Source of the DNA: Minisyncoccia bacterium
GTDB taxonomy: Bacteria > Patescibacteriota > Minisyncoccia > Phycocordibacterales > CALRBL01
NCBI GenBank assembly: GCA_038230075.1
Contig: JBBRNV010000005.1
Location: 14,071-78,070 of the forward strand
DNA length: 64,000 nucleotides
Direction: 5' to 3'
Shown: one piece after another, positions 17,370-63,309 of the stretch
Numbering within the stretch: the first letter of the stretch is position 1
Layout of the letters: each line of letters begins with the position of its first letter
Translations under genes and position numbers: made by a program
Notes under the pieces: generated by a model
The model's database searches: none
What the model was told of the DNA's origin: nothing
What the model saw: the letters and a program-made list of their open reading frames with translations, nothing else

Positions 17370-18209
17370 CTAAAAAGTTGCCTTATATGCATCGAGTACA
17401 TTTTGGAAAAGAGACACAATTGTTAACTGTCCAACACCTCCAGGAACTGGAGAAATAGCCTTAACTAAGGGTTCTATTGCCACAAAATCGACATCTCCGT
17501 ACAAACCTTCTTCTTCTCTGTTGATTCCAATATCAAATATTACCTGTTGTTCATTTACAAAGTCTTTTGTAATAAAATGTTTTTTTCCAATAGCAACCAT
17601 GAGCATATCTGCAGACTGACAGAGACGAGGTAAATTTTCAGTGTGCGAGTGAGCGATGGTTACTGTTGCATTTTGATTGAGTAGTGCAAGCGCGAGTGGT
17701 TTTCCAACAATTAATGATCTTCCAATAACGACAATATGTTTTCCTTTAAAAGGAAGTTGATATTCCTGTGCCATTGTAATAATTCCCCTCACTGTCGCAG
17801 GAAGAAAACCTTTCTGACCAGAGTACAACTTTTTTACATTCGAAGCAGTTAATCCGTCTACATCTTTTTCTGCAACAATTGCATCAATGACAGAATGTTC
17901 ATCAACATGTTCAGGAAGCGGAAGTTGTACTAAAATTCCATGAACAGACTCATCAACATTATACTGTCTTACAAGTGCAACAACCTCTTCTGTTGTTACA
18001 TCTTCTCTCATCAAATTGTGTACAACACTCATTCCAATAGTTTCTGCAAATTGCTTTTTGTGCTGAATATACGTTGTTGAAGCTTGGTTGTTTCCAACTT
18101 GAATAATAGCCACCGCTGGAGTCTTTTTTCCAACAACAACAGCTTCGGTTACCTGTTGTATAAGGATAGATCGATATTTTTCTTTAACAGTTCGTCCATT
18201 TAAAATCAT
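17370..18209 (-). CDS. folD: Bifunctional methylenetetrahydrofolate dehydrogenase/cyclohydrolase
   Basis: AIIQVGNNQASTTYIQHKKQ, HGILVQLPLP, DVDGLTASNVKKL, VVIGRSLIVGKPLALALL - canonical FolD motifs. Confidence 0.95.
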   Translation of the reverse strand: MILNGRTVKEKYRSILIQQVTEAVVVGKKTPAVAIIQVGNNQASTTYIQHKKQFAETIGMSVVHNLMREDVTTEEVVALVRQYNVDESVHGILVQLPLPEHVDEHSVIDAIVAEKDVDGLTASNVKKLYSGQKGFLPATVRGIITMAQEYQLPFKGKHIVVIGRSLIVGKPLALALLNQNATVTIAHSHTENLPRLCQSADMLMVAIGKKHFITKDFVNEQQVIFDIGINREEEGLYGDVDFVAIEPLVKAISPVPGGVGQLTIVSLFQNVLDAYKATF

Positions 18210-19489
18210 TACAGCGGATTATGGTCTTTTCGGAAGAATTTAACAAGGGGTTGATATGAATACTCTACCGCTCTAATAATGAGAATAAAAAAAGTCACAG
18301 TAAAAAGGCCAAGTGAAAATCCGGCAATAACATCGGTCGGCCAATGAACTCTAAGATAAATTCGACTAATTCCAACAAGTAACGGATAGAACAAGCAAAC
18401 AAGAAGAAATAAAAATTTATTTGTTCGTGAATCAATGTACTTTTTAAATACGAAGAAAATGAGAAGCGCATACATGGTTGAAAAGTTGGTATGTCCACTT
18501 GGAAAACTTAAAGACAGAACATTAATCAGAGCATTTTGAGGACGATCAATGTTTGTTACTAGTTTGAAAAAGTTATCGACAAGCACCCCTCCTCCAAGCA
18601 CCAAAGGAATGAGAATAGCATCAGTCCAATATCTTTTGTACAAAACATATGCAAACAGTAGTACCGATAATACCGCCGCAACGGCTGGATCTGCCAAGTG
18701 TGTGACGAATGTAAAAAATGATGTGAGAGTGGGTGTCGTAATCGAAGGAAGCCAACCATTAATGGTTTGATCAAATGTGCTCAACCACTCGTGATCAATG
18801 ACACCCTCGAGGGTATAACAAAAAATTAAAATGGCGGAGATGTTAAAAAATAATGCGTAAACATGATATTTTTTAAATACTTGATGACGATGATTAAGGA
18901 ATCGATATCCTAAAATAAGCCCAATTATAAGAACAATTGCTGCAAGAATAAAGGCGCTGAAGTATTGAATCGCAAGTTCGATTCCCTGTCCAAAGATATA
19001 TCCACCAACAAGATGTACCACCGCCCAGAACACTGAAGAAACAAGTGATGATGCAACAAATGCTCCAAATGAGTAGTTGGTTGAGCCAAAAATAACTGGC
19101 GAAATTGCACGAGTTACTGAATTAAATCGTCCGATAATAATTGTTTTTATTGGATGAGCTTCAACAACCGATTTCACTCTATCAATATTCTTTTTTCCAA
19201 TAAAAGCATATCCGGAAAGTTTTTCAAGAAAATGATTTCCGTATTTTTTCCCAACTACATATCCTAAAATATCTCCGAGAAATCCTCCGGCAGTTGCAAT
19301 GAAAATAAGAGGAACAAGATGGATCTTTTGAACATGCGCAGTGATTCCAAGAATAACAGTGATTGATGAACCCGGAACAATTGAGCCAACAATTGGTAAT
19401 CCTTCAACAAATGCCGCGAGAAAAGCAATGGGAAAACTGAAGGTTTGAATAAGAGGCTCTATCACCTTTAAAAGATGATGCAGTAACAT
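18209..19489 (-). CDS. Membrane protein, DedA/SNARE-associated domain fused to PAP2 (BcrC-like) phosphatase domain
   Basis: N-terminal VEGLPIVGSIVPGSSI (DedA), C-terminal PSGH (SFPSGHTNFS) and RIYLRVHWPTDVIAG (PAP2 motifs 2/3). Confidence 0.7.
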   Translation of the reverse strand: MLLHHLLKVIEPLIQTFSFPIAFLAAFVEGLPIVGSIVPGSSITVILGITAHVQKIHLVPLIFIATAGGFLGDILGYVVGKKYGNHFLEKLSGYAFIGKKNIDRVKSVVEAHPIKTIIIGRFNSVTRAISPVIFGSTNYSFGAFVASSLVSSVFWAVVHLVGGYIFGQGIELAIQYFSAFILAAIVLIIGLILGYRFLNHRHQVFKKYHVYALFFNISAILIFCYTLEGVIDHEWLSTFDQTINGWLPSITTPTLTSFFTFVTHLADPAVAAVLSVLLFAYVLYKRYWTDAILIPLVLGGGVLVDNFFKLVTNIDRPQNALINVLSLSFPSGHTNFSTMYALLIFFVFKKYIDSRTNKFLFLLVCLFYPLLVGISRIYLRVHWPTDVIAGFSLGLFTVTFFILIIRAVEYSYQPLVKFFRKDHNPL

Positions 19490-24525: not shown

Positions 24526-24807
24526 CTACTCTTGTAACATCTTTTTTCTTTTTTCGGTATAGTCCCACCAAGGTTTTGCAGGTGCACCATTCATAAAATC
24601 AACAGCGGCAAGGAATGTATCAAGAACGCAAGGGTCATGCGTTACTCCTGTTTTTCTGCAAAGGGTCTTATACATTGTAAGCCCATCAGACTTTTGTAGG
24701 TCAGAAGGCGCGTGAATTCCAAGTAATGCAAAGTCTTCAATCATTGCTGGGCCGATATTTGGAATATCTTTTAACAACAATGCTTCTTTGTGTGTTTTGG
24801 CTTTCAT
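24526..24807 (-). CDS. Small helix-hairpin-helix domain protein (TfoX-C/Cdd1-like)
   Basis: LKDIPNIGPAMIEDFALLGIHAPSDL resembles an HhH DNA-binding motif. Tentative. Confidence 0.4.
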   Translation of the reverse strand: MKAKTHKEALLLKDIPNIGPAMIEDFALLGIHAPSDLQKSDGLTMYKTLCRKTGVTHDPCVLDTFLAAVDFMNGAPAKPWWDYTEKRKKMLQE

Positions 24808-24812
24808 TAAAA

Positions 24813-25496
24813 CTAGTTAAACATTTCGTACTGCTTCTTAAACACCCGCTTGGCGATCTCTAAAATTCCATAGGTGATAAAAAATGCTGAGAATACATCG
24901 ATTGAATAGTGAAGATGGCCAATAATTACTGCAACAGATCCTATGATAGTGCAAAGTAAAAAATAATATCGAAGATAGGCAAACCTCCAAAAAATAAGTG
25001 TGAGAAGAAATGGAAACCCTGTGTGTCCTGAGAAAAATAAGTCATTTCCAGAATCTAAACTGAAAAGAACTTGCTTAACATGATGTTCATATTCGTAGTA
25101 ACTATAGTGAGCGACAGCTGGAGCTGAGAGATGTGTCATCACCATAAATATTGAACGAATGATAAAAAAGAGTGCACTAGCAACCAACGTGAAGGGAATC
25201 GATTCGGGAATAAGAACGAGAACACATACAGCAGTAATAATAAAAAAGAATAATCCTTGAAAGAAAATATAGGAAACATCGATGGTTGGAAGATGATCGA
25301 GAAGAATATCTGGAACAACATATCCTAAATATCCCCCAATATATGTTCGGGCTATTCCTGCAGCAATAAGACTAACAATTAATAAGACCAGATTTACCCC
25401 AACCTTAATAAGAAACTTCTTATCTTTCCATAAAGACATGTGTTTACCGCATAGTATTTTAAGCTGATCAATCAAAGTATTTTGATTATAGTCCAA
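24813..25496 (-). CDS. PAP2-superfamily membrane protein
   Basis: FFSGHTGFPFL (PSGH-like) and GHLHYSIDV (SRx5Hx3D-like) motifs; multi-TM. Confidence 0.5.
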   Translation of the reverse strand: MDYNQNTLIDQLKILCGKHMSLWKDKKFLIKVGVNLVLLIVSLIAAGIARTYIGGYLGYVVPDILLDHLPTIDVSYIFFQGLFFFIITAVCVLVLIPESIPFTLVASALFFIIRSIFMVMTHLSAPAVAHYSYYEYEHHVKQVLFSLDSGNDLFFSGHTGFPFLLTLIFWRFAYLRYYFLLCTIIGSVAVIIGHLHYSIDVFSAFFITYGILEIAKRVFKKQYEMFN

Positions 25497-25531
25497 ATGA
25501 CATTATCGGTACAATAAATTATACTTCGAAG

Positions 25532-26116
25532 ATGACCATTTTTAGTCATCTACTTACCCTCATTGAATCGTCAAAATATTTCCTTCTTTTTATTGGTTCA
25601 TATGTAGAAGGATCCGTAGTCATGATGACCGGAGGAATATTGATTCATCTTGGCAGTGCGACAATTCTCAAAACATTTGTTGCATTGTACGCTGGTGATA
25701 TTCTGTCTGACATCACCCTCTATATTGTTGGTTACTTTGGCGCACGAAAACTAGTAGCACGTTTTGGAGGAGTTATTGGAGTAACTCCTGAAATTATCGA
25801 TAAAGTTGAGATACGTTTTAAACGTCATCACTTATGGATACTCATTATTTCTAAACTAACCATGGGTTTTGGTTTGGCTTACGCCACCCTTATCACAGCG
25901 GGTATTACTCGTGTTCCTTTTTGGAAATATCTTTCGGTAAATGCAATTGGCGGAATAGTTTGGATTCCCTTTCTTATGACGCTCGGATATTACTTCGGCA
26001 ATATATTTGATTATATTCCACACCAATTCAAAGTACTTTCATGGATCCTCATTCCAGTTATTTTTATTTTAGTTTTCCGATACGTCACCAAACGACTTGC
26101 AACAGTAGATTGGTAA
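25532..26116 (+). CDS. DedA-family membrane protein
   Basis: VEGSVVMMTGGILIHLG DedA signature; divergent from the PAP2 gene. Confidence 0.7.
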   Translation: MTIFSHLLTLIESSKYFLLFIGSYVEGSVVMMTGGILIHLGSATILKTFVALYAGDILSDITLYIVGYFGARKLVARFGGVIGVTPEIIDKVEIRFKRHHLWILIISKLTMGFGLAYATLITAGITRVPFWKYLSVNAIGGIVWIPFLMTLGYYFGNIFDYIPHQFKVLSWILIPVIFILVFRYVTKRLATVDW

Positions 26117-27226
26117 CTATACCCGACCTTTTTGCATATCACTTTTAAAAGCAGCAAGAACGTCTTCTGGTTGTATTTGTTCTATAAAAGAAAAATTGTT
26201 TGTTTTTATAAAGCGTTGAGTTAATCCCCGACCATGAGACCTATCGATAATAATATCTTCACTGTTTCGAGGTGTATATAAATGCGGTCCAGGACCAAGC
26301 AAAGTAATACTTGGAGTTCCAACAATATTTGCCATATTTCGAGGTCCGCTATCTATACCAATAAAATAATCTGAATCTTTTATCACAAGTAACAACTCAT
26401 AAAGATTCACTTTTCCAATAAGTGATTGAATATCGAGAGATGGTAACTGCGAGACAATAACATCTAAATCTTTTTGTTCTTTATGTGACCCCACAAAGAT
26501 GAATCGAAAATCTCCTAAGGCGGCTAAGAACAAAAGTAATGTCATCCACTTCTCGAGGCTCCAATGATTCATTATCCAACTAGCACCGGTATGAATAATA
26601 ACTTTCTTTCTTGTTGTTTGTAACTCACTTAAAGAATCGAGTTTAGCTGAATCTTCTTGAACTACAGCAAACATCTCATCAAAAGGAATTACTCGCGGAG
26701 CACTTCCTATCATTTCAAATACAACATCAGCCCATCGCTTCGGAGTTTTTCTCAACAAAAGAGAAACGATAAGATGTGGCACATACATGCTGTATGCAAA
26801 TAATCCTGTGTGTAATTTCTCTACACTAATATCTTTTATTTGTTTGTATGCATCTCCACTCATTCTTAATACCAACATCTCTTTGTAATTCCCGAGTTTC
26901 TTTTTGTGTTCACTCACCTGTTCGATATCTCGAGAAAAAACTGACTCGGCAATATACACGTTTCTAATTCCTTTAATTTTTTCTGCAATAGATTTAAGTG
27001 GAGGCGAAACAAGAATATCAATCACGCCTCCTTTATGTTTCTCTATGACATCATGTAGTGCAGGAACCGACACAATAAACTCTCCGATGAGGCAGGTGTT
27101 TACAATAAGAAGATTGTTTGTCGTCACTTCATTTGAATGATCAAAAGTGAAGGCTCTCTTAATAATAAGCAAGCAAAATAAGGGTATTTCTTTGTACAAA
27201 CTAAGGTAGTCAGTATTTAATTTCAT
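26117..27226 (-). CDS. Glycosyltransferase family 9 (heptosyltransferase-like)
   Basis: C-terminal GIDSGPRNMANIVGTPSITLLGPGPHLYTP matches the GT9 donor-binding signature. Confidence 0.7.
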   Translation of the reverse strand: MKLNTDYLSLYKEIPLFCLLIIKRAFTFDHSNEVTTNNLLIVNTCLIGEFIVSVPALHDVIEKHKGGVIDILVSPPLKSIAEKIKGIRNVYIAESVFSRDIEQVSEHKKKLGNYKEMLVLRMSGDAYKQIKDISVEKLHTGLFAYSMYVPHLIVSLLLRKTPKRWADVVFEMIGSAPRVIPFDEMFAVVQEDSAKLDSLSELQTTRKKVIIHTGASWIMNHWSLEKWMTLLLFLAALGDFRFIFVGSHKEQKDLDVIVSQLPSLDIQSLIGKVNLYELLLVIKDSDYFIGIDSGPRNMANIVGTPSITLLGPGPHLYTPRNSEDIIIDRSHGRGLTQRFIKTNNFSFIEQIQPEDVLAAFKSDMQKGRV

Positions 27227-27248
27227 GCAAGTCTGTTAGTATTGAAAT

Positions 27249-27971
27249 ATGAATCAAAGGTTTTTCTCGATTATTATACCAGCACACAATGAGGAAGTTC
27301 TTATTGAACAAATGCTTTTATCTTTGAAACAACTAGAATATCCTACTACACATTATGAAGTTATCGTAGTTGAGAATAGCTCTACCGATAAAACATACGA
27401 ACTAAGCAAAATGTATGAATCAAGTAACGTTAAAGTCTTTCAGACGAAAGAGAAGGGGGTATCGAAAGCGCGCAACTTTGGAATACATATGTGCGCACCC
27501 AACACAGAGTGGTCTATCGTACTTGATGCTGACACAAGTTTGAAAAGCTTATTTCTAAATGAACTCAATATGTTTCTCGATATGCACCCATTAGCAACAT
27601 ACGGAATGACTGCACTTACACCAAACAAAAATACTCTTACAGCGAGATTTTGGTTTTGGTATCGAAATCAAACAGATAAATTAATGAAAACATTAGATAC
27701 GATTCATATAGTAAAAAAAGAGTTACTGAGTAAAGTTCACTATAGTGAAGAATTTAACTTTACCGAAGATTTACAATATGCAGATGAATTAAAAAAATGC
27801 GGTGTCTACTTTTTTATGCCAACAAAAAGCCTTATTACCTCAACAAGACGATATGAGGAAAAAGGTTATATGAATATGTTTTTCATGAATCTTATAATAG
27901 GTTTTAAATATATATTCAAAAGAGAATCTTTGAAAAATAAATCTTGGGAAATTATTCGAGAGGATAAGTAA
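27249..27971 (+). CDS. Glycosyltransferase family 2
   Basis: FSIIIPAHNEE...VIVVENSSTDKT...DADT (DxD) GT-A signature. Confidence 0.8.
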   Translation: MNQRFFSIIIPAHNEEVLIEQMLLSLKQLEYPTTHYEVIVVENSSTDKTYELSKMYESSNVKVFQTKEKGVSKARNFGIHMCAPNTEWSIVLDADTSLKSLFLNELNMFLDMHPLATYGMTALTPNKNTLTARFWFWYRNQTDKLMKTLDTIHIVKKELLSKVHYSEEFNFTEDLQYADELKKCGVYFFMPTKSLITSTRRYEEKGYMNMFFMNLIIGFKYIFKRESLKNKSWEIIREDK

Positions 27972-27993
27972 TTGTGTTGTATTTAGGTTTATT

Positions 27994-28428
27994 TTAAAGT
28001 GAATTCTCTTCAATAAAACCTCTAACCAACACACCGATCTGATTCATTGTGACTACGTGTTCTTCAAGAGATGTTCCCTTAGGATCTTTTACATCCCAAT
28101 ATGTTACTTTGCTTGAATTCTTTAAGTAGTCTGGAATAAATTCTGATTCAACTGTTACCACTATTTTATCAGCCCATTCAACCATACCTGGAGTAAGCTG
28201 AGTTCTAGTATTTTCAGCTATTTCAATTCCTTTTTCACGAAGAGGCATGAGAACCTTTTCAATTTCTGGTATTTCTTTAAGCATTTGCCCATCTCTGCTC
28301 TCACCCTCTTTTGAAACAACTGTTGTTCCAGCAGAACTAACTTTATGTTTATTATTGATCTGCTTAAAAAGAGCTTCGGCCATCTGACTCCGTCCAACAT
28401 TTCCCTTGCAAACAAAAAGGATATTCAT
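27994..28428 (-). CDS. Low-molecular-weight protein tyrosine phosphatase / ArsC-fold
   Basis: N-terminal CX5R P-loop ILFVCKGNVGRSQMAEA. Confidence 0.8.
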   Translation of the reverse strand: MNILFVCKGNVGRSQMAEALFKQINNKHKVSSAGTTVVSKEGESRDGQMLKEIPEIEKVLMPLREKGIEIAENTRTQLTPGMVEWADKIVVTVESEFIPDYLKNSSKVTYWDVKDPKGTSLEEHVVTMNQIGVLVRGFIEENSL

Positions 28429-28432
28429 AAAT

Positions 28433-28891
28433 TTATATTACCAAATGAGAGATACAAGCCAACATAATACCAATTGGTATCCAAATAAAATATTCCTTCG
28501 GAGCTATTAACCACCAATTATCGCGATGCCACCAAATCTTTTCTTTTCTGAAGTTCTTCAAACCATATGCAGGATTAAGCAGAAACCATAAAAAGTCTTC
28601 GAATACCCAAAATAGAATAAACAATGCGAGCAACTGAAGTTCTATCGCAAGTGATAGAGATTGAAATAAATAGACGACATGAAGAATAAATAATATGAAT
28701 GCGTTGATCCAAACATGGTATCCAGTTGCTGGTCTTCGTCCAAAAAATAATCTACTTATCCAGTGTTCTTTTGACACTTTCCATGTTGGTAAATTCTCTG
28801 CCCACCCAGCTGACCCTTCAATAGTAATTTCTACTTTTGCGAAGAAGAAGCTAGCAATTAGAATAAAGAGGAGTGAAGACAGGATGTTCAT
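28433..28891 (-). CDS. Hypothetical integral membrane protein
   Basis: Four predicted TM helices; no domain assignment. Confidence 0.45.
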   Translation of the reverse strand: MNILSSLLFILIASFFFAKVEITIEGSAGWAENLPTWKVSKEHWISRLFFGRRPATGYHVWINAFILFILHVVYLFQSLSLAIELQLLALFILFWVFEDFLWFLLNPAYGLKNFRKEKIWWHRDNWWLIAPKEYFIWIPIGIMLACISHLVI

Positions 28892-28910
28892 AGTAGTGAA
28901 TAACTAAATC

Positions 28911-30058
28911 TTATTTTCCTTCCAAAATAATCTTTTTATAAAGCTCTATTAAACTTTTAGCAATAGTTGCACTTCCAAATTGTTTGGAAGTTTTAATAGC
29001 TTCTGCTGATAACTTTTCTCGGAATGATACATCTTTGAGAATCTGATCTATTCGCTCAACACCTTCTGTTTGCGAAGAAACAATAAAACCATTCTCGCCA
29101 TTACGGATTATTTCAGGCGCTACACCCACCGCATATGTAATAGGGATAAGCCCTTGAGACATGCCTTCAATAAGACTCAGAGAAAACCCCTCATAACGTG
29201 ATGAGATAAAAAGAATACTTCCTCGAAGGGGTCGCAATAACTCTGGCAGCTTATCCTTTTGAACATTAAGGTGTAGTGAGTGGTGAGAAATTTTTGAACG
29301 AAGCCATGCACCAAGCGGCTTATTAATGGTCATACAAAATGTAGATTTTGGCACATCTGGAAATTTTTGATACATGTGAATCAAGCGATCCAAACCTTTC
29401 AGTTTTAAGGTGAAAGCATCATTACCAAGTCTCCCAAAAAAACAATATGCGGAGCAGTTGTTAGAATCGACTGTTCTAAAGCATCGAACCAGTAGTCTTC
29501 GATGGCATTGTGAATCAAATAAATTTTATTCTGATCAATACCACATGAAATCAGCTCCTTACGAACATTCTCTGATGTAGCAATCACCGCTGTCGCACGA
29601 GAAGCAACATAACTCTCAACGTCGGCAATATCTCGAAGTGGTTTTCGTGTCTGAATATTTAGTTCTGATATAGCCCCGTCTTTTTTGAGCTTGTACCACA
29701 CCTTGCGACAGCCGTTTTCCAGCTTACTTGCGAATGGTGTTGAACTTAGGAAACCTTTGGTCGTTGAGCCGAAATGACAAACTACAGGTACTGGATATGC
29801 CAAAAATGGAAGAGCTGTGTATGTTGTCCCTTGGATAAGGCTATACTTGAGAATTTCTTTTCTGCGCTCAAGCAAGGAATAGAAGAATAATATATTCTTG
29901 ATGCCACCAAAGTGAACAGGTGTATCAATGAGTGATGTTTTAGGGTAGAAATTTTTAATCTCCACACTTGACTCCTTCAACTTTGAAGCCATGAGATCAT
30001 TGATGTAATGAGCTCCTGTTCCGATTTTCTTTTCATTGTGAATAAAGGCAACTTTCAT
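28911..30058 (-). pseudogene. GT4 glycosyltransferase split into two ORFs by a frameshift at an A7/T7 homopolymer (pseudogene or phase-variable)
   Basis: 29405..30058 encodes the GT4 N-terminal domain and 28911..29393 the C-terminal Glycos_transf_1 domain (EGFSLSLIEGMSQGLIPI). The reading frames join across the tract cccaaaaaaac at about 29435-29441 (HIVF-[F]GRLGNDAF...). Confidence 0.6.
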
Positions 30059-30097
30059 GATGGTTCATATCTTATAATCCAAAACAATCCCACAATG

Positions 30098-30170
30098 GGT
30101 GCCTATCGGGATTTGAACCCGAACTGAGAGTTCCACAAACTCTAGTGCTAACCATTACACTATAAGCACC
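30098..30170 (-). tRNA. tRNA-His (anticodon GUG) with encoded G-1
   Basis: Hand-folded cloverleaf: 7-bp acceptor with extra 5' G; anticodon loop TTGTGGA; T-loop TTCAAAT; no encoded CCA. Confidence 0.75.
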
Positions 30171-30214
30171 ATATACGAAAACGCGACCATCTTTAACCCT
30201 AACTGCGTATCGTG

Positions 30215-30298
30215 TGCACAGGAGAGGACTCGAACCTCCATACCCTTGCGGGCGCTACCACCTCAAGGTAGTACGTCTACCAGTTTCGCCACCTGTGC
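30215..30298 (-). tRNA. tRNA-Leu (anticodon GAG), long variable arm
   Basis: Hand-folded: acceptor GCACAGG/CCTGTGC; anticodon loop TTGAGGT; variable stem-loop; T-loop TTCGAGT. Confidence 0.75.
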
Positions 30299-30384: not shown

Positions 30385-30413
30385 TGACATTCTCATTAAT
30401 ATGTGATAATATA
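30385..30413 (+). promoter_or_regulatory. Sigma-70-like promoter (ttgaca - 17 nt - taatat, with upstream tgtgataat extended -10-like element)
   Basis: ttgacattctcattaatatgtgataatat lies directly upstream of the secreted-protein gene; A/T-rich UP region. Confidence 0.45.
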
Positions 30414-30438
30414 TAGGAGTAATCAACTAATCAATTAT

Positions 30439-32316
30439 ATGAATATTCTATCCATCAAAAACAAGGTAATTTCAAAGATTTTCACAGGTCTCATGACTGC
30501 GCTTGTTACTTTTGGAGCAGCTGGAATCGCAGAAGCTACGAGCTATATTCCACTCAGTGATACATATAACATTAGTCTTTCTCCTTCTGTGGCAACCCTT
30601 AGTTCATCTGAATACGTTACGATTAACTTCAACCAGGTTCTCACAGATGCAATTTCAAATCTCTCCGTTGCAGTCTACGACCAACAGCATAATCTTATCA
30701 GCGACAACCGACTTGATTCATACAAGTTTGTTCAAACACATTATCCTTTAGCACAGACCGATGTCATGTGTTACTACCCTACCGACGATGGAATTGGACA
30801 ATACCACATTCCAAACTGTGGTGGATATCTTTATGCTACTCAATTTCAAGCAAAGGTAACAGACCTTGTTTCTAATGCGGGCACATACTCAATCAATATT
30901 CATCAAACATATACAAACGGATATGCAAATTCACTTCGAAATATTCTAAGCAACACTGTTACTCTTACTGTTACCTCAACATCAACAGATCTCGATACTA
31001 TTACAATCACATCAACAGACTCTCTAAGTCATCCTGCAAATACAGCAACAACTATTGCCTTTAGTGCAGGTCTCAGTTATGGATACGCACAAACAACATT
31101 TAACACATCACGAAGTCAAACAGTTCCAGGAATGACATTTACTCAAGGATACGCTCCTTGCGAATTAGGAATGGCATGTACTCAGAATTATGTTGCAAAC
31201 GCATTATTTCTTTCAGGAACACCAACAACACCAGGAACATACCAAATTGTAATTGATGCAACACAGTCTCTCTATCCTCAGTGCGCAGCTCCAATTGATG
31301 GAATTGCAATAGGATGTGATCAAGTTATTGAACATGGAACAAAAACTTTCACTCTTACTATTACTCAAAATCAGGTGATACAAACTGAAAACATTTCTTT
31401 CTCATATCCAGTTAACGCTCAGGTATTAAATTACAACAACGGTCACTGGTACATGTTTAAGGTTCAGTCATCAACTCAGAATTCACATGTTGCATCATAC
31501 CGATACACCCTTACTCAAAATGGAAATACTATTATTAATAGTCGGCTCGTTGGTTCAACAGGAGAATTCGCAGTAGGCCCAACAGATGCTGAATACAATT
31601 CTATTCAACGAGGAAACCTGACAGTAACCGCAACAGGATACTCAAATGCTGCAGGAACTGTTCAGATCACTAACCCAGTATCTATCACTATTTCGATTGC
31701 AGATCTTGGCAATCCAAATCCTTCAAACCCTGGAAACTCAAATGGAACAATCACAGGAACATTTGGATTCACTTTCCCAACATATCCATTCAATCAAAGT
31801 CTGGAACGAGGAAATACGTATCCAGTTTCTTGGAACCAGACAATTAACGGCGCAACGGTTGGAGACCTCTATCTTACAAGTCGACGTGGTGATGTCATTG
31901 CTTCGCAGTTAATTGCACACAATGTTTCTATTGCAAACAACTCATATTCAGTAACAATTCCTTCTAACACCCAGCTGTATGATGGTTCTGTGTGGAACTT
32001 CCAATTCATTGTTGCTGTAGGAACTGCAAACGCTCAAACATTTCGAAGTAACAACTTTGCAATCGTTGATCGTCAGCCAACTTCAGAAGAAATTACAAAT
32101 CGAAACTTGAAACTTCAGGCAGAATATAATGCACAGTTCCCTACTACTTCATATTTATCACAGTATCAATATTCACAAGCTAATCAGACACAAACAACTA
32201 ACTACGCAGCAAAAGTTGCAGCTCCACAGCAAACATTCCAAATCGCGTGGCCAACTACAAGCTATAGTTACCAGAACCAATATCAGTACCAGCCTTCATA
32301 TAACTATTCGTACTAA
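30439..32316 (+). CDS. Large secreted Ser/Thr/Asn-rich protein, paralog of 51917..54901, with Tyr/Gln-rich C-terminal tail
   Basis: Signal peptide after MNILSIKNKV (the track's start at 30403 lies inside the promoter). C-terminal module PSNPGNSNGTITGTFGFTFPTYPFNQSLERGNTYPVSWNQTINGATVGDLYL is shared with the 994-aa protein. Confidence 0.7.
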   Translation: MNILSIKNKVISKIFTGLMTALVTFGAAGIAEATSYIPLSDTYNISLSPSVATLSSSEYVTINFNQVLTDAISNLSVAVYDQQHNLISDNRLDSYKFVQTHYPLAQTDVMCYYPTDDGIGQYHIPNCGGYLYATQFQAKVTDLVSNAGTYSINIHQTYTNGYANSLRNILSNTVTLTVTSTSTDLDTITITSTDSLSHPANTATTIAFSAGLSYGYAQTTFNTSRSQTVPGMTFTQGYAPCELGMACTQNYVANALFLSGTPTTPGTYQIVIDATQSLYPQCAAPIDGIAIGCDQVIEHGTKTFTLTITQNQVIQTENISFSYPVNAQVLNYNNGHWYMFKVQSSTQNSHVASYRYTLTQNGNTIINSRLVGSTGEFAVGPTDAEYNSIQRGNLTVTATGYSNAAGTVQITNPVSITISIADLGNPNPSNPGNSNGTITGTFGFTFPTYPFNQSLERGNTYPVSWNQTINGATVGDLYLTSRRGDVIASQLIAHNVSIANNSYSVTIPSNTQLYDGSVWNFQFIVAVGTANAQTFRSNNFAIVDRQPTSEEITNRNLKLQAEYNAQFPTTSYLSQYQYSQANQTQTTNYAAKVAAPQQTFQIAWPTTSYSYQNQYQYQPSYNYSY

Positions 32317-35260: not shown

Positions 35261-35857
35261 TTATTGTGTTGGATTTACGTCTTTTTGCTTTAAGACAGAG
35301 AAAGATATTGCTGCTCCCCACTGACTTTCTTTCGACACCTTATCATCTGAATTACTTCCATTTGCCTGAAGATTAACGTGACTGATATTTATTTTATACG
35401 GCAACGATTCAAGGGTGGTTAACACATTAACAACGTCGTGCCACAAACCATTACTTTGAACATCAAGACTGAGCGATTCAAGATCTGCAATTGAAGTAGA
35501 GTCGGTGACATTGATCCCAATGATGGTGGTGGTTGCTCCACTACTTTGTGTTTCAGACTCTACCAACTCAACAAACTTTACTGTTTGATCAGGTTGCACA
35601 GTGTACGCTAATAATTTTTGTTTTCTGTCAGAAGCGTCATTGGTGAGCTCTTTCAAATGCTTCATGCTTTGTGTTTCTTGTGTTCTGTCGGCCAACTCTT
35701 TTGAGAGATCGTGAACTCGTTTCGATGTTGTATTAATGGTGTACATACCATATGCATACACACCTCCAAAAATAAATGTTAGAAGAATCATGAGAACAAG
35801 TGATGTGTGTCTGAATTTATTCATGATGTTTAAGAATAATATGAATATTAAATCCAA
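35261..35857 (-). CDS. pilO: Type IV pilus assembly protein PilO-like
   Basis: N-terminal TM followed by a coiled coil; position after pilM-pilN. Confidence 0.5.
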   Translation of the reverse strand: MDLIFILFLNIMNKFRHTSLVLMILLTFIFGGVYAYGMYTINTTSKRVHDLSKELADRTQETQSMKHLKELTNDASDRKQKLLAYTVQPDQTVKFVELVESETQSSGATTTIIGINVTDSTSIADLESLSLDVQSNGLWHDVVNVLTTLESLPYKINISHVNLQANGSNSDDKVSKESQWGAAISFSVLKQKDVNPTQ

Positions 35858-36356
35858 TGTTTGAACTTTTTGTTAAATCAGAAATGGGAGAATCAACACT
35901 TTGCACATCACTTACCCGAGCGAGTTGCTGTTTAAACGAAACAAGCGCTTCTCTTGTTTTAGCCGAACCACTTATTTCAACAGTTCCCTGTTCTCCGAGC
36001 GACACTCCAATATGGTCGAGAGTTATTCCAGCAACACGGGCCCGAACTACATTCTCAATCACTCGTGAATATGTCGAAGAAGAAGCTGTTGGTGTAAGTG
36101 CTGTGGTTAAATCTTTCACATCTCGAAGTGTTCCTGAAAGTGGAGTTGAGGCACTGTCTCCCAACTGAATCTTAAGAGCATCACTCCGTGTCTGAAGTTC
36201 ATTAATTTTTGTTGTAGAAATAATATATGAAGGAATGATTGAAACCACCGCGATGAATAATCCCGAAGCCAAAAAACCAAACAAAATAGTTGCCACGCGT
36301 AAACGATATTCTCGTTCTAACTTCTTTCTGTGTTGGCGTGGAATAAGATTAAACAT
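35817..36356 (-). CDS. pilN: Type IV pilus assembly protein PilN
   Basis: MFNLIPRQHRKKLEREYRLR matches the PilN N-terminal INLLP...R...R motif; single TM. Confidence 0.6.
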   Translation of the reverse strand: MFNLIPRQHRKKLEREYRLRVATILFGFLASGLFIAVVSIIPSYIISTTKINELQTRSDALKIQLGDSASTPLSGTLRDVKDLTTALTPTASSSTYSRVIENVVRARVAGITLDHIGVSLGEQGTVEISGSAKTREALVSFKQQLARVSDVQSVDSPISDLTKSSNIGFNIHIILKHHE

Positions 36357-37431
36357 GAGGATTGTGTAATCGAGGAAGTGCTAATCCGATTGCTGGACCA
36401 TATCGAAGAGAATCTTCAAACGAAATTGGTGGAATGTAGTCGTCGAACGAACACACGTTTGTCCAAATATTTCCAATCTCTGCAGGCACTTTGATTGATT
36501 GAGAAATGTGATCGACGAATCCTGGAACACTTGCGTCGTCTCCGCAGAGAATAATTTTTTGAATACGTGGCTTTTCTACAGTCACCCCCTTGTGAGTGTG
36601 CCAGTACACATACACTCGCTCAATTTCTTCTTTAAGAACTGATGCGGGGCCCGCCATCGCAGAAAGCATTTCAGAATTCTCTTTTGTTTTAACGAATCCT
36701 TTTTCTTTTTTCATTTTCTCAGCCTCAACAGGAGTAATATTAAATTGCTTTGCGATTCCTTCGGTGAAATTTCGTGATCCTATTTGAATCGTTGAAGTGA
36801 ATTGCACACTATCTTGCGACACCACAAAGAGACCAGTTTTGCTTTCTCTAATATTAACCAAGAAATATGCATTCATGTCGTTTCCTTTAATCACCGCCTT
36901 CGAAAGTGCTTGAGGCTCAATCAAGAATGAAAGAGGAGTAAGGCCTGCCTTAGCGAATAAGTCGATATAGTTTTGCACAACCTCTTCAGGAAGCACCGTT
37001 ACAGCAACAACCACTTCCCCGTTTCCAACGTCTCCGATAAGTCGAAAATCAAAAATAGATTCCGCTGGTGAAATTGGCACATTTTCTTCAAGACTGAATT
37101 CGATCGAACTTCGCATCTCAGCTTCTGAACCAATCGGTACTTTAGTTTCAAATAAATATGCTCGCTCTTCAGGAAGAGATGCTTCAATAAACTGAAGGTT
37201 GTACTTCTTTTTCCACTCAGTCAAAATATCAACAAGATTAGTGTGCTTTGAAATATCTTCAGAGAAGTTAACGGGATATTTCAAGTCGGCTGATGCATAT
37301 TGAGAGACCTCAAGTGAATGCTCTTTTGCTTCGAGAGAAATGAGGTTAACTGAGAATTGAGTAATATCAATTCCCGCTGTTGGCATCTTTAGATACTTAG
37401 GAGTTGGAAAAAACTTAAAAAACAAACTCAT
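36349..37431 (-). CDS. pilM: Type IV pilus assembly protein PilM (actin-like ATPase fold)
   Basis: AGIDITQFSVNLISLE N-terminal motif, 360 aa, followed by pilN/pilO. Confidence 0.75.
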   Translation of the reverse strand: MSLFFKFFPTPKYLKMPTAGIDITQFSVNLISLEAKEHSLEVSQYASADLKYPVNFSEDISKHTNLVDILTEWKKKYNLQFIEASLPEERAYLFETKVPIGSEAEMRSSIEFSLEENVPISPAESIFDFRLIGDVGNGEVVVAVTVLPEEVVQNYIDLFAKAGLTPLSFLIEPQALSKAVIKGNDMNAYFLVNIRESKTGLFVVSQDSVQFTSTIQIGSRNFTEGIAKQFNITPVEAEKMKKEKGFVKTKENSEMLSAMAGPASVLKEEIERVYVYWHTHKGVTVEKPRIQKIILCGDDASVPGFVDHISQSIKVPAEIGNIWTNVCSFDDYIPPISFEDSLRYGPAIGLALPRLHNPHV

Positions 37432-38643: not shown

Positions 38644-38733
38644 GGAGGAGTGGCAGAGTGGTCTATCGCACTTGTCTTGAAAACAAGAGTCCCTTCACGG
38701 GGACCGTGAGTTCGAATCTCACCTCCTCCGCCA
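38644..38733 (+). tRNA. tRNA-Ser (anticodon UGA), CCA encoded; insertion target of the adjacent element
   Basis: GGAGGAG...anticodon loop CTTGAAA...long variable arm GTCCC-TTCA-CGGGGAC...GTGAGTTCGAATCTCAC-CTCCTCC-GCCA. Confidence 0.85.
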
Positions 38734-40230
38734 AGAATCACATTTAGAAAAATCAAGGTTGGAAGCCTCGGCGCAAAGCGCCTCGGCATGGTATTTTTCC
38801 GCAATTTTGAAGGCATTTTTGAAATCGCACGCCAGCGTGCGGTCGGCAATGCGGAAGTTCGAACCAATCTTTTTGAGAAAATCCCGTCCCGCGACGGGAT
38901 TTTCTTGTTGAGCGTATTTTTCGGCTTGGTTGGCCTCTTTTAGAAAGGCAATGGCAAGTTCGAACCGATTATTGCTCTTTCGCTCAAAAGACTGGATTTT
39001 CTCCTGAAAATCTTTTTTAGCGAGAATGAGCTTGTGCTTTTTAGTGGCATATTCCGTTTGCAATAAATTGCCTTCAAGTTGTAAATCGAGCAAACGATCA
39101 AGTTTTGTCTCAACCTGCACAAGCTCATCTCTCGTCTTTTGAGCAAAAGAGCTTTCCGCTTGGGCAATATCTATTTTTTCTTTTTCAAAATATGCGATTG
39201 AAACATTGACCCAAGCGGAAGACAAAGAAACTTTTTTGATTTCCTCTTTTATTTGAGAAGTGATGGCGTCCTCTCTCGCGTATCTTTGCGAGCAAGGATT
39301 TTTCCGTTTGGTACAGCGGAGATAGTTGTGTCCCTTTTGTGTTTCAGTGGTAATGAAGCAACCACATTCTCCGCAACGGAAAAATCCTCTATACACATAA
39401 GGTTTCAACTTTGGCGATTTCGGTTTGCTCTTATTCGCCATCACTTCTTGAACGGAATCAAAAAGTTTCTTTGTGATAATCGGTTCATGCTTTCCGTCAT
39501 ACAATTCGCCGTTATATTCAATCATTCCAAAATAGATTTTATTTTTCAGCATGTACTGATAATTTGAGACGGAAAGCATTTTACCTTTCTTGCCAACCAA
39601 GCCCAAGGAATTGATAATCTTTCGGATTTGAGCGAGGGGGTATTCGCCAGTAGCGTACATTTCAAAAGCCCGCTTGATATACTTTGCCTTTTCTTTATCA
39701 ACAGCGATACAGCGGGCATTCTTGTCGTTCACATAGCCAAGCGGCGCCCAAGCGGGCCATATTCCATTTCTCAATTTCTGGCGAATACCCCTCTTTATAT
39801 TTTCCGAAAGATTATCCACATAGTATTTTGATTGCCCAAAAGCAATGGACAACATAAATTTCCCTTGCGGTGTGCAGTCAAACCAAAAAGTGGGAAATTT
39901 TAGCGTGGTAATTTTGCCAGTATCTACGAGATAGATAATCCGTCCGCCGTCTATAGAATTGCGAGCAAGGCGGTCGGGGTGCCACGCTAAAATTCCTTCC
40001 GCTTCGTTTTTCTCTATGCCCGCCACCATATCATTAAAAATTTCTCGCCCCGGCTCTTTGGCGGTTTTGCTTTCCACAAATTCACGGACGATCTGCAAAT
40101 TTTCTTTTCGCGCGTATTCTTTTAGCTCGAAAATTTGCGCTTCAATACTCAAAACCTGCCTTTCGGGTTCGTCCGTGGATTTGCGGGCATAGAGGAAAAA
40201 CTTTTTGGTTTGTAAATTTATGTTGTCCAT
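38719..40230 (-). CDS. Large serine recombinase (resolvase catalytic domain + recombinase domain + zinc ribbon + coiled coil)
   Basis: YARKSTDEPERQVLSIEAQ (catalytic Ser motif), recombinase-domain motifs, CGECGC...C zinc ribbon; 503 aa; ~44% GC versus ~37% for the host. Confidence 0.9.
   Translation of the reverse strand: MDNINLQTKKFFLYARKSTDEPERQVLSIEAQIFELKEYARKENLQIVREFVESKTAKEPGREIFNDMVAGIEKNEAEGILAWHPDRLARNSIDGGRIIYLVDTGKITTLKFPTFWFDCTPQGKFMLSIAFGQSKYYVDNLSENIKRGIRQKLRNGIWPAWAPLGYVNDKNARCIAVDKEKAKYIKRAFEMYATGEYPLAQIRKIINSLGLVGKKGKMLSVSNYQYMLKNKIYFGMIEYNGELYDGKHEPIITKKLFDSVQEVMANKSKPKSPKLKPYVYRGFFRCGECGCFITTETQKGHNYLRCTKRKNPCSQRYAREDAITSQIKEEIKKVSLSSAWVNVSIAYFEKEKIDIAQAESSFAQKTRDELVQVETKLDRLLDLQLEGNLLQTEYATKKHKLILAKKDFQEKIQSFERKSNNRFELAIAFLKEANQAEKYAQQENPVAGRDFLKKIGSNFRIADRTLACDFKNAFKIAEKYHAEALCAEASNLDFSKCDSWRRR
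38728..38861. repeat. Inverted repeat X, copy 1 (~134 bp; includes the last 6 nt of tRNA-Ser and the last ~45 codons of the recombinase)
   Basis: ccgccaagaatcacatttagaaaaatcaaggttggaagcctcggcgcaaagcgcctcggc...gcggaagttcg is the reverse complement of 40345-40478, with 1 mismatch. Weaker similarity continues ~60 bp further. Confidence 0.85.
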
Positions 40231-40344
40231 ATTGTTTTGAAATTAGTTTTTGGGCAATCAGGGAAAAATACGCTCAACCTTTCGCCGAAAGCGAAAGAAA
40301 AAAGATTGGTTTGCAAAATTCCATTTTGCCAGAACTTCGCTCTG

Positions 40345-40478
40345 CGAACTTCCGCATTGCCGACCGTACGCTGGCGTGCGATTTCAAAAATGCCTTCAAA
40401 ATTGCGGAAAAATACCATGCCGAGGCGCTTTGCGCCGAGGCTTCCAACCTTGATTTTTCTAAATGTGATTCTTGGCGG
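40345..40478. repeat. Inverted repeat X, copy 2 (immediately upstream of the recombinase start, abutting Y copy 1)
   Basis: Reverse complement of 38728-38861. Carries a duplicate of the recombinase C-terminal coding segment (the + ORF 40311..40535 reads FRIADRTLACDFKNAFKIAEKYHAEALCAEASNLDFSKCDSW). Confidence 0.85.
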
Positions 40479-40643
40479 TGTTTCTTGATTGATGTTCGAA
40501 CATTTTTTGAAGAAAATCCGAATTCCGAATTTTAAAATCCAGTTGCTCGGGCGGGCAAAAAGGAAGGGGGTTGGGGGGAAGGAATTTTTGCCCGCCCTCG
40601 CTTTCCAATCCCAATTTTTTTCCGCCGCCGTCGCCGAATTTCG
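40475..40643. repeat. Inverted repeat Y, copy 1 (~167 bp)
   Basis: gcggtgtttcttgattgatgttcgaacattttttgaag...gggcgggcaaaaaggaagggggttgggggg...ccgaatttcg is the reverse complement of 43967-44132, with 2-3 mismatches. Contains the palindrome gttcgaac. Confidence 0.85.
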
Positions 40644-40727
40644 TATTTCGCTTTGCGAAATGCGCCGCCTAGAATTTTGGTTGCCAAATTTCAATGTTTT
40701 TGTTATCATTATATTAAGCTAGTTGAT

Positions 40728-40757
40728 ATACACTCAATATAAGTAGTGTATTATAAT
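40728..40757 (+). promoter_or_regulatory. Candidate operator palindrome (atacact-N10-agtgtat) and -10 box (tataat) upstream of the cargo operon
   Basis: 7-bp inverted repeat at 40728-40751 is immediately followed by tataat at 40752-40757, 22 nt before the ATG at 40780. A plausible binding site for the XRE HTH protein in the operon. Confidence 0.35.
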
Positions 40758-40779
40758 AGTTTATCAAAGTCAAAACAAT

Positions 40780-41094
40780 ATGGCAAATCAATCGGTAAAA
40801 GAAACATTTGAATCACTTTGGGAATGTTGCACTTCTAATAAGAGGGTATGCCCAATGCCAATGAAGTGGAATGATTTATATCAAATGTTAAATGATACCA
40901 AGCAAGTCGGTGCCGGTTATGAGCCGTCAATCCCCTTGATTTTAGGAGCATGGGGAAATACTTCAGACGAAGATAAACTAAATAGATTGAGAATTCATAT
41001 TAAATGGGCTTCAGATCATAATCAGCTTGATGAAATTGGAAAATATTTGAGATCACTTTCAGAAGAAGATTGGGCTCATTACGGAGAAATATAA
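40780..41094 (+). CDS. Hypothetical 104-aa protein, first gene of the cargo operon
   Basis: MANQSVKETFESLWECCTSNKRVCPMPMKWNDLYQ...; no recognisable domain; the next gene starts 4 nt after its stop. Confidence 0.5.
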   Translation: MANQSVKETFESLWECCTSNKRVCPMPMKWNDLYQMLNDTKQVGAGYEPSIPLILGAWGNTSDEDKLNRLRIHIKWASDHNQLDEIGKYLRSLSEEDWAHYGEI

Positions 41095-41098
41095 TTTT

Positions 41099-41299
41099 AT
41101 GGCAAATACAGTAAGCGAAAACATCCGCAAATTACGAATCAAAAAAGGAATATCCCAAGATCGCCTCTCAAAAGAGGCTGATTTGGCGTTAAATACAGTT
41201 GTGAAGATAGAAACAGGCGGAAGCCCGAATCCAACCGTGGATACTTTAGAAAAAATAGCCAAAGCCCTCGGCGTTCCGGTGGCTGAATTATTTAAATAA
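41099..41299 (+). CDS. XRE/Cro-C1-type helix-turn-helix transcriptional regulator (66 aa)
   Basis: NIRKLRIKKGISQDRLSKEADLALNTVVKIETGGSPNPTVDTLEKIAKALGVPVAELF is a canonical HTH_3 domain. Confidence 0.85.
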   Translation: MANTVSENIRKLRIKKGISQDRLSKEADLALNTVVKIETGGSPNPTVDTLEKIAKALGVPVAELFK

Positions 41300-41303
41300 A
41301 AAT

Positions 41304-61593: not shown

Positions 61594-63309
61594 ATGCGTA
61601 TCTGCGGTACTATATATGAAATGATTCATTTTGATGAAGAAAAGCAAATAAAAAAGTTTGACGAACTTCGCCACGAAGAACAAGAAGAGTTAGCAAAAGC
61701 ACTTGCTGACAAATATGGCGTCGAATACGTAAACTTAAGTGGAATTTCTATTAATACAGACGCTCTTCGCCTTATTCCAGAAGCAACAGCTAAAGAAAGT
61801 AAAACAGCGGCCTACAATATAGTTGGAAAGAGAGTGTCGGTAGCCACTGTTTCTCCACAAAGTCCTAAAGTAACAGAGGTTGTGCAACAACTTCGAGAGA
61901 AAAACTATGAGATAACAGTTTTTATCTGCTCTGAGGAAAGTCTGATTAAAGCCTGGAGTAGGTATAAAGATATTTCTTTTGCCAGTGAAACAAAAGGAGG
62001 GTCTCTCGATATTTCAAGTGATGAAATCGAAGAGTATGTAAAAAAAGTTCACAGTATCAACGACATCAAAACATCTATTGGTGAAGCACTCGCAATGAAA
62101 CGAAGTTACCGAGTATCTAAAGTGATGGTAATTATTTTTGCGGGCGCACTCTCTGTTAGTTCTTCCGACATTCACATCGAACCTGAAGAAACATTTGCTC
62201 GAATTCGATACAGACTCGACGGGGTGCTCACTGATGTCATTGAATTTGATACTGAAACATATAATTTGATTCTTTCTCGAATCAAACTTCTTTCGAATCT
62301 TAAATTGAACGTGAAAGACAACGCCCAAGACGGACGATTCAGTATTAAAATTTATCAAGACGATATCGAAATTAGAACATCAGTTATTCCTGGAGCATAT
62401 GGAGAATCAATTGTGCTTCGAATCCTTAATCCAAAATCTCTTTCTGTTTCACTTGAAGAAATGGGTATTCCGGAAAATCTTTATAATATTTTGATTCGAG
62501 AAGTTGAAAAGCCTCAAGGAATGATTCTAACCACCGGCCCAACAGGTTCTGGAAAAACAACAACATTATATTCGTTCTTGAAACGAGTAAAATCTCCGAT
62601 GATTAAAATTATTACCATTGAAGATCCTATTGAATATCACCTTCCTGGAATTACTCAAACTCAAGTTGAAGCACACAAAGGATATACATTTGAAAATGGG
62701 CTTCGTTCGGCACTTCGACAAGACCCCGATGTCATCATGGTTGGAGAAATTCGAGACAATGAAACAGCGAGAACCGCTATCGACGCCTCGCTCACAGGTC
62801 ACCTTGTATTTTCAACACTTCACACCAACTCTGCGGCTGGAGCATTTACACGCTTAATGGATCTTGGGGTTAATCCTCGAATCTTACCTTCAGCGGTAAT
62901 GGTTGCCATTGGTCAACGACTCGTTCGTCGACTATGTCAGACATGTAAAAAGAAAGTTGAAATTCCTGCAGAGAAAAAAGATGTGATCAAAGCAGTTGTT
63001 GAAAGTATTAAAAATAAAGAAGCAGATAAGAATTTACTACTCGGCACACTCGACACAGAACATATGTATGAAGCTGTAGGATGCCCACTGTGCAACGGAA
63101 CAGGATATAAAGGACGAGTAGGAGTATATGAAGCAATTCTCGCCGATAAGCAAGTCGAGTCAATCATTCGAGAAATGCCGAGTGAAAGAGAAATTGAAGA
63201 AGCTGCATCAAATCAAGGAATCATGACCATGCGACAAGATGGAGTTATTAAAGTATTAAAAGGCCTCACCTCTTTGGTTGAACTTGAGCGAGTTGTTGAA
63301 GTCTACTAA
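61594..63309 (+). CDS. pilB: Type IV pilus assembly ATPase PilB / GspE family
   Basis: GSPII_E N-terminal domain, Walker A (GPTGSGKTTTLYS), Asp box and His box; C-terminal tetracysteine motif (CQTC...CPLCNGTGY). Confidence 0.85.
   Translation: MRICGTIYEMIHFDEEKQIKKFDELRHEEQEELAKALADKYGVEYVNLSGISINTDALRLIPEATAKESKTAAYNIVGKRVSVATVSPQSPKVTEVVQQLREKNYEITVFICSEESLIKAWSRYKDISFASETKGGSLDISSDEIEEYVKKVHSINDIKTSIGEALAMKRSYRVSKVMVIIFAGALSVSSSDIHIEPEETFARIRYRLDGVLTDVIEFDTETYNLILSRIKLLSNLKLNVKDNAQDGRFSIKIYQDDIEIRTSVIPGAYGESIVLRILNPKSLSVSLEEMGIPENLYNILIREVEKPQGMILTTGPTGSGKTTTLYSFLKRVKSPMIKIITIEDPIEYHLPGITQTQVEAHKGYTFENGLRSALRQDPDVIMVGEIRDNETARTAIDASLTGHLVFSTLHTNSAAGAFTRLMDLGVNPRILPSAVMVAIGQRLVRRLCQTCKKKVEIPAEKKDVIKAVVESIKNKEADKNLLLGTLDTEHMYEAVGCPLCNGTGYKGRVGVYEAILADKQVESIIREMPSEREIEEAASNQGIMTMRQDGVIKVLKGLTSLVELERVVEVY

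Follow-up and report, generated by a model that had tools for sequence, protein, structure and literature searches.

A conserved GT4 glycosyltransferase gene of Patescibacteria carries a frameshift that most likely lies next to a homopolymer run

Introduction

Positions 28911..30058 on the minus strand of a 64,000-nucleotide stretch of a Minisyncoccia bacterium (assembly GCA_038230075.1, contig JBBRNV010000005.1, positions 14,071 to 78,070; the whole stretch is called the window) carry a GT4 glycosyltransferase gene of the GT-B fold, which is one gene split over two reading frames beside a run of seven adenines (A7). This raises the question whether the gene is switched on and off, broken, rescued during expression or simply misread. 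A first-pass annotation of the locus had offered three answers, namely phase-variable surface glycosylation by slippage of the run, a decaying gene and sequencing error. A codon-level comparison with orthologous loci points to the recent loss of one base from the glycine codon that follows the run, and this reading is weighed here against the alternatives.

Results and Discussion

One gene in two reading frames

The following parts of the gene can be distinguished, with residue numbers referring to the protein after repair of one base (open reading frame, ORF):

28911..30058, minus strand: the whole frameshifted GT4 gene, 382 codons once one base is repaired
29405..30058, minus strand: N-frame ORF of 217 amino acids, acceptor-side Rossmann domain plus the first beta-strand of the C domain (…HIVFLG)
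28911..29393, minus strand: C ORF as listed, 160 amino acids, Glycos_transf_1
28911..29435, minus strand: C-frame coding remnant, G209-K382 plus stop, with the donor-side Rossmann domain, the GRLGNDAFTLKLKG loop and EX7E (E290-E298)
29436..29442, minus strand: run of seven thymines (T7) on the coding strand, A7 on the plus strand, made up of two bases from the end of Val206 GTT, the whole of Phe207 TTT and two bases from the start of Leu208 TTG
29432..29435, minus strand: most probable site of the one-base deletion, TTG GG_ AGA in the window versus TTG GGN AGA in orthologues

That the two halves of one GT4 enzyme lie in different frames, as the first-pass annotation had stated, was confirmed by frame analysis and by the Pfam domains of both ORFs. 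The 217-amino-acid fragment matches Glyco_transf_4 with 35.3 bits (33.1 bits for the repaired protein, cut-off 28.5) and the 160-amino-acid fragment matches Glycos_transf_1 with 62.1 bits (61.2 bits for the repaired protein, cut-off 26.4); the repaired protein also matches Glyco_trans_1_4. After HIVFLG the N-frame ORF continues with eight out-of-frame residues, DLVMMLSP, and ends at a TAA stop (29405..29407). Homology of the C frame reaches upstream past the listed ORF start, in the same frame, to position 29435, and gene callers start the C fragment at 29375 (154 amino acids, Logan) or at 29333 (140 amino acids, NCBI). A change of one base in the tract does fuse the halves as had been proposed: a run length of 8 (or 5) yields a single ORF of 382 (381) amino acids that reads ...APHIVFFGRLGND... 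across the junction. The A7 tract is indeed present there, one base away from the coordinates given earlier (29436..29442 instead of about 29435-29441). The assembled allele reads ...ATTGTTTTTTTGGGAGACTT... at the junction (TTTTTTTGGGAGA within 29425..29450), and its in-frame counterparts would be TTTTTTTGGGGAGA, TTTTTTTGGGNAGA or a run of eight thymines (T8).

By every criterion tested the gene is a member of the GT4 family, except that its ORF is not intact. The EX7E motif is complete (E290-GFSLSLI-E298) and both of its glutamates are invariant in the orthologue alignment. An AlphaFold2 model of the repaired protein, built from 49 sequences, shows the two-Rossmann GT-B fold (predicted local distance difference test score 87.6, predicted template modelling (TM) score 0.88), and the top Foldseek matches are the retaining GT4 enzymes MshA, GlgM, HepE, PglA, BshA and PimA (probability 1.00, TM 0.65-0.74, about 15% identity). 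The protein has in common with these enzymes both Pfam domains, the EX7E motif, the G-R-x-G...K-G loop and the predicted two-Rossmann fold. It differs from the solved members such as MshA, BshA and PimA in the low identity of about 15%, in the absence of any equivalog near its cut-off and in the frameshift of its gene; searches of NCBIfam and of PDB sequences gave generic GT4 matches only, the best equivalog being Agl16 with 60 bits against a cut-off of 575. Judged from its sequence, the protein is a GT4 whose subfamily is uncharacterised and strongly conserved among Paceibacteria/Patescibacteria.

About a thousand homologues of the repaired protein were found. The best 120 are all full-length (368-429 amino acids) and share 64-79% identity with the query over 93-100% of its length; where a source gives them a name, it is Paceibacteria, Parcubacteria or Patescibacteria. 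GTDB representatives, among which the genome of the window is not included, give the same picture, and the family is conserved at 50-82% identity over many Patescibacteria lineages. The closest intact relative is P0122 (JGI 3300056388), a protein of 392 amino acids that is 82% identical to the repaired protein. P0122 was absent from the ordinary homologue search and surfaced when the members of clusters were listed: in the protein collection clustered at 90% identity, the truncated 217-amino-acid fragment is the cluster representative and masks this intact member.

Position of the lost base

Junction codons were taken from 37 and subsequently from 117 orthologous loci. All 117 loci cross the junction in a single frame with the peptide V/I-F/Y-L/I-G-R-L/I/M, and the 120 homologous proteins are without exception single chains. 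It is thus not the case that the orthologues are naturally two genes, a situation which the first-pass annotation had named as speaking against an interrupted enzyme. Position 208 is leucine in 115 and isoleucine in 5 of the 120 proteins (113 and 4 of the 117 loci), and phenylalanine in none of either set. Throughout the 120 proteins, G209, R210 and G212 do not vary.

The same T7 run occurs in frame in 15 of the 117 loci (GTT or ATT, followed by TTT TTR GGN), and a run of eight thymines occurs in none. Two of the loci may serve as examples, with GTT TTT TTG GGA AGA in L069 and GTT TTT TTG GGG CGG in L015, compared with GTT TTT TTG GG- AGA in the window. Since 15 orthologues carry T7 in frame and none T8, seven thymines are the normal in-frame length. 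The N frame is correct through the run, through the conserved Leu208 (TTG, 29437..29435) and through the glycine, and agreement of the C frame with the family begins at GGG AGA (29435..29430). An interruption at the homopolymer itself, as claimed before, is not confirmed by this arrangement. The family consensus V-F-L-G-R is recoverable only with the missing base inside the Gly codon, and therefore the lesion is placed immediately 3' of the run in coding-strand orientation. As far as can be told from the codon comparison, Gly209 has most likely lost its third codon position (29432..29435). The change at this codon is G4 to G3 if N is G and AA to A if N is A; otherwise a unique base was lost.

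A repair of the Gly codon restores all 64 invariant columns of the alignment, including G209 and R210, and a leucine at the near-invariant position 208. A repair to T8 is valid by arithmetic but encodes L208F. Changes in invariant or near-invariant columns on the branch of the window amount to 1 in 151, and the GGG glycine codon that the T8 scenario needs is found in 16 of the 117 loci. We weighted the deletion sites by the rarity of such column changes, by the frequency of GGG and by slippage-rate ratios assumed from general knowledge. This weighting, which is an estimate and not a measurement, would favour a deletion in the Gly codon over the T8 route very roughly 2-40 fold. As a methodological point, an indel that adjoins a homopolymer may lie outside it: here, comparing codons among orthologues relocated the lesion from the run to the Gly codon.

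A young loss-of-function allele

Apart from this lesion the gene is in good condition. After repair of the Gly codon, the protein has the family residue in 64 of 64 invariant columns and in 86 of 87 near-invariant ones; the median intact orthologue misses 2. Its mean identity to 120 outgroups is 68.4%, compared with 69.4% for P0122, the intact sister, and in this respect its two halves resemble each other. The term decaying gene, which had been one of the three options, applies here only in the weakest sense that the gene is broken, as the lesion is the only one and nothing else points to relaxed constraint. A long-standing pseudogene was considered as well and is ruled out by the single lesion, the retention of conserved residues and the lack of rate acceleration. 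Because the gene is otherwise undamaged, the lesion must have arisen very recently, unless it is compensated or not real at all. The 64 kb yielded no GT4 paralogue that might take over its role.

In our view the locus is probably a young loss-of-function allele of a conserved Paceibacteria-type GT4, caused by a single-base deletion for which the third base of Gly209 is the best candidate. It seems reasonably probable that this allele is also real in the cells. According to the confident structure model, the break lies inside the strand 205-210, the first strand of the C-terminal, donor-binding Rossmann domain, and translation ends 10 codons after Leu208. The consequences can be envisaged as follows. 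After the loss of a single base from the Gly209 codon, directly behind a T7 run of normal length, ribosomes would read Met1-Gly209, add 8 wrong residues and stop at 29405..29407, so that the product would be a 217-amino-acid acceptor domain with one orphan beta-strand. Translation of the donor-binding domain would depend on internal starts, none of them before codon 222, and would yield a C fragment without the strand C-beta1 and without the G-R-x-G...K-G loop. In GT4 enzymes such as PimA and MshA this loop holds the phosphates of the nucleotide sugar. As the C fragment would lack the phosphate-holding loop, the enzyme is expected to be inactive, and a step in the synthesis of a putative envelope glycoconjugate would be lost in the genotype carrying the deletion.

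Such an event would be an ordinary, very recent one-base frameshift. Like other young bacterial pseudogenes or null alleles, the gene has one indel, a stop 10 codons further on, no other lesion and intact relatives, and nothing substantive sets it apart from them, its one notable trait being that the target is a very well conserved lineage-specific GT4. The gene should be annotated as a frameshifted GT4 pseudogene or null allele, and neither as two genes nor as a phase-variable locus. Should the allele be real, one natural Patescibacteria population manages without this GT4, which would then be dispensable in at least some conditions. Beyond annotation the case matters little, and it offers a modest lead for studies of the envelope of uncultured Patescibacteria.

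Several points weigh against this reading. The placement of the deletion is a parsimony argument, and an ancestor with T8, and hence L208F, that lost one T is possible; T8 runs slip far more readily than G4 runs. The family is so conserved across many Patescibacteria lineages that its full loss might be costly. The evidence consists of assembled sequence, which leaves room for a consensus error and also for a mixed or minority allele, and the two assemblies that agree on the site may share reads, which would make their agreement independent at the assembler level only. Finally, a gene that is perfect but for one indel is exactly how an error would look.

Real allele or consensus error

The alternative that survives best is that the cells carry an intact gene and that a base was dropped from the consensus in or next to the homopolymer during sequencing or assembly, which we regard as possible but unlikely. 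It would explain an otherwise flawless gene in a family that is apparently under strong constraint, the indel sits at the T7-G3 junction and thus in a context where indel errors concentrate, and the organism is on record from one pair of run and assembly only. The two assemblies, however, were made by different assemblers and are identical over 5.7 kb: a Logan contig from SRR19962015, which ends inside the tRNA-Leu gene, agrees to 100% over 5,705 bp (window 24568..30272) with the site included, and the same 217-amino-acid product is on record from the NCBI contig (90,332 bp) and from this Logan run. The length of the identical contig suggests that the reads are accurate. A look-up via the neighbouring GT9 gene led to the same Logan contig, and a junction-spanning query of 123 amino acids returned the NCBI C-fragment as its sole match; exact-product look-ups of the 160-amino-acid C ORF, of a neighbouring 637-amino-acid protein and of P0124 found none on record.

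An error-prone data set should furthermore have broken several genes, and the window shows no other broken frame. At least 10 overlapping or adjacent same-strand ORF pairs in the 64 kb were scanned, and no other split gene was found among them. The scanned pairs with a Pfam match represent distinct complete families, in detail sigma-70, Acyl_transf_3 and Cdd1, pseudouridine synthase and Clp-like, PilO-like, tRNA_bind and RuvX, DoxX and NUDIX, DsbB and SpoU. ORFs cover 92% of the window, which contains 131 G/C runs of 4-6 bases. That no other frame is broken despite 42 long A/T runs and these 131 G/C runs argues against systematic homopolymer error. Sequencing error, as one of the original three options, is hence possible but disfavoured by the agreement of the assemblies and by the clean frames in the rest of the window.

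The homopolymer run and phase variation

In the phase-variation model the A7/T7 run would slip between a length of 7 (off) and of 8 (on) and act as a reversible switch of surface glycosylation. T8 (or T5) does restore a single ORF, the glycosyltransferase sits among envelope genes, and an otherwise intact gene is compatible with the off-phase of a live gene. The on state, however, would encode L208F, the phenylalanine that no orthologue carries, and the T7 run is found in frame in the 15 orthologues, with none out of phase and with no T6 or T8. The run itself is ordinary. The 42 A/T runs of at least 7 bases in the window compare with 60.8 +/- 8.1 expected from a first-order Markov model, five of the runs have a length of 8, none reaches 9 or more, and 31 runs of at least 7 lie inside uninterrupted ORFs. 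The T7 run is therefore unremarkable for the window and nothing marks it as a contingency tract; typical contingency tracts are longer than 7 bases. Phase variation by slippage of the run is thus unsupported, with a wild-type length in frame and a never-seen Phe at length 8, and we consider it quite improbable.

Phase-variable glycosyltransferase genes driven by homopolymers are found in host-adapted pathogens, examples being the poly-G/C tracts of Neisseria lgt, Campylobacter jejuni wlaN/cgtA and Helicobacter pylori fut. The locus resembles them in being a glycosyltransferase ORF that would regain its frame if the length of a mononucleotide run changed by one base. It differs in that the run is short, consists of A/T and has the wild-type length, in that the restoring length alters a near-invariant residue, and in that the orthologues show no variation in length. 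Within the collection of papers that was searched, none links Patescibacteria to homopolymer phase variation, the sole paper with both terms dealing with archaeal DNA methylation, and the exact junction pattern with a variable tract had 0 matches in JGI metagenomes. As a candidate phase-variable locus the gene was rejected on two grounds, the tract not being unusual and the in-phase length not encoding the conserved protein.

Recoding at the junction

A lesion next to a run of thymines could also be compensated during expression. In such a savior indel, some full-length enzyme would arise from slippage, either of ribosomes (-1, at a low level) on U_UUU_UUG or of transcription on U7. The N (0) frame contains a slippery heptamer of the type X_XXY_YYZ, namely T_TTT_TTG (29435..29441, minus strand); it fits within GTT TTT TTG, and the re-read G of TTG gives GGG AGA, that is Gly-Arg. 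Because the lost base lies in or next to the G run, a -1 slip would restore the exact consensus ...VFLGRLGND... (recoded peptide ...HIVFLGRLGNDAF...). Compensated homopolymer indels are documented for the G7 run of the thymidine kinase of herpes simplex virus (HSV) and for poly(A) slippage in the endosymbionts Buchnera and Blochmannia (PMC5009743). The locus is like these cases in having an indel beside a slippery run at which a -1 slip recreates the wild-type peptide. Unlike them, it has no stimulator, a weak motif and a run of only 7 bases.

Against such a rescue stands the lack of downstream structure (-22.4 kcal/mol, z = -0.66, with 52 of 200 shuffles folding at least as well) and of any visible Shine-Dalgarno-like stimulator upstream, and none of the 117 orthologous loci has a two-frame arrangement. 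In Escherichia coli, frameshifting on unstimulated heptamers exceeds the background of about 0.055% only 2-10 fold, and U_UUG, one of the weakest A-site motifs, reaches only 1.8-3.6 fold above background even with a pseudoknot (PMC4066793). Bacterial transcriptional slippage as covered in a review concerns runs of about 9 (PMC5009743). Under these circumstances full-length product is expected to amount to no more than a trace, and compensation appears highly improbable. A programmed -1 frameshift site was examined as a separate candidate and rejected: the heptamer is there, but stimulator and conservation in orthologues fail.

The most far-reaching variant of this idea is that the T7-G3 junction is a working low-level switch in an episymbiont of the candidate phyla radiation (CPR)/Patescibacteria, where the deletion silences a conserved surface glycosyltransferase and rare -1 slippage or reversion from T7 to T8 keeps a trickle of enzyme or a way back. 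We find this even more doubtful than compensation alone. If this were true, CPR/Patescibacteria would have their first described locus of a contingency-like or compensated-indel kind.

The two fragments as a split enzyme

Least probable of all is a functional split enzyme, in which the N- and C-domain polypeptides would be made separately and associate as in GT-B enzymes of the Alg13/Alg14 type. Such split GT-B enzymes exist and the break lies near the inter-domain boundary of the fold, but the C frame contains no ATG, GTG or TTG between the upstream stop and GRLG. The first candidate starts are TTG 29393, TTG 29384 and ATG 29375, none of them preceded by a clear ribosome-binding sequence. A C fragment made from these canonical starts would lack the strand C-beta1 and the invariant loop residues G209, R210, G212, K221 and G222, which makes a functional split enzyme unlikely, and both the 117 orthologous loci and the 120 best homologues are all single chains.

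Neighbourhood and other features of the window

For the gene in question, regarded here as a young null allele, the surroundings are those of a cell-envelope cluster, and the GT9, GT2 and LMW-PTP neighbours named in the first-pass annotation were recovered by the family search. The neighbouring genes are:

24813..25496, minus strand: PAP2_C
25532..26116, plus strand: VTT/DedA
26117..27226, minus strand: GT9
27249..27971, plus strand: GT2
27994..28428, minus strand: LMWPc/ArsC-like
28433..28891, minus strand: membrane protein of 152 amino acids, no family
30097..30298, minus strand: tRNA-Leu(gag) and tRNA-His(gtg), directly upstream of the GT4 gene, with tRNA-His ending 38 nucleotides before the ATG

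No promoter-like site was found between the tRNA genes and the GT4 gene, and the latter may be co-transcribed with tRNA-Leu and tRNA-His. Divergently from this tRNA-GT4 unit a gene for a Ser/Thr/Asn/Gln-rich protein of 637 amino acids is transcribed (30403..32316, plus strand), which has an N-terminal hydrophobic segment, a Q/Y-rich tail (…YQYSQ…YQNQYQYQPSYNYSY) and no Pfam family. It is plausibly a surface protein and possibly a substrate of glycosylation.

On the contig of P0122, PAP2, VTT, GT2, GT9 and PAP2_C genes are located 1-4 kb downstream of the GT4 gene. This synteny of envelope genes is absent from the more distant orthologues and is shared by P0122 alone. The order PAP2-VTT-GT2-GT9-PAP2_C, found also in the contig of P0122, may represent a conserved lipid-carrier or glycolipid module of the lineage. 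Domains of the VTT/DedA and PAP2 type occur twice in the window, once fused in a protein of 426 amino acids (18209..19489, minus strand) and once as the separate genes beside GT9 and GT2.

Further observations concern more distant parts of the window. A large serine recombinase gene (Resolvase + Recombinase + Zn_ribbon_recom, 38719..40230, minus strand) overlaps a tRNA-Ser(tga) gene (38644..38733, plus strand) and is followed by a gene for a three-domain protein of Mrr_N, GmrSD_N and Schlafen/AlbA_2 (41304..43934, plus strand); the region 38644..43934 looks like an integrated element or a defence islet at a tRNA gene. An ORF of 2,276 amino acids (7777..14607, minus strand) has a C-terminal Peptidase_S74 domain (endosialidase chaperone, residues 2020-2069) as its sole Pfam match and could encode a giant protein, fibre-like or on the surface, that carries its own intramolecular chaperone. 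Type IV pilus genes, including PilM, PilO-like and a T2SSE/PilB-type ATPase, are located at 35261..37431 (minus strand) and 61594..63309 (plus strand), which fits a Patescibacteria genome.

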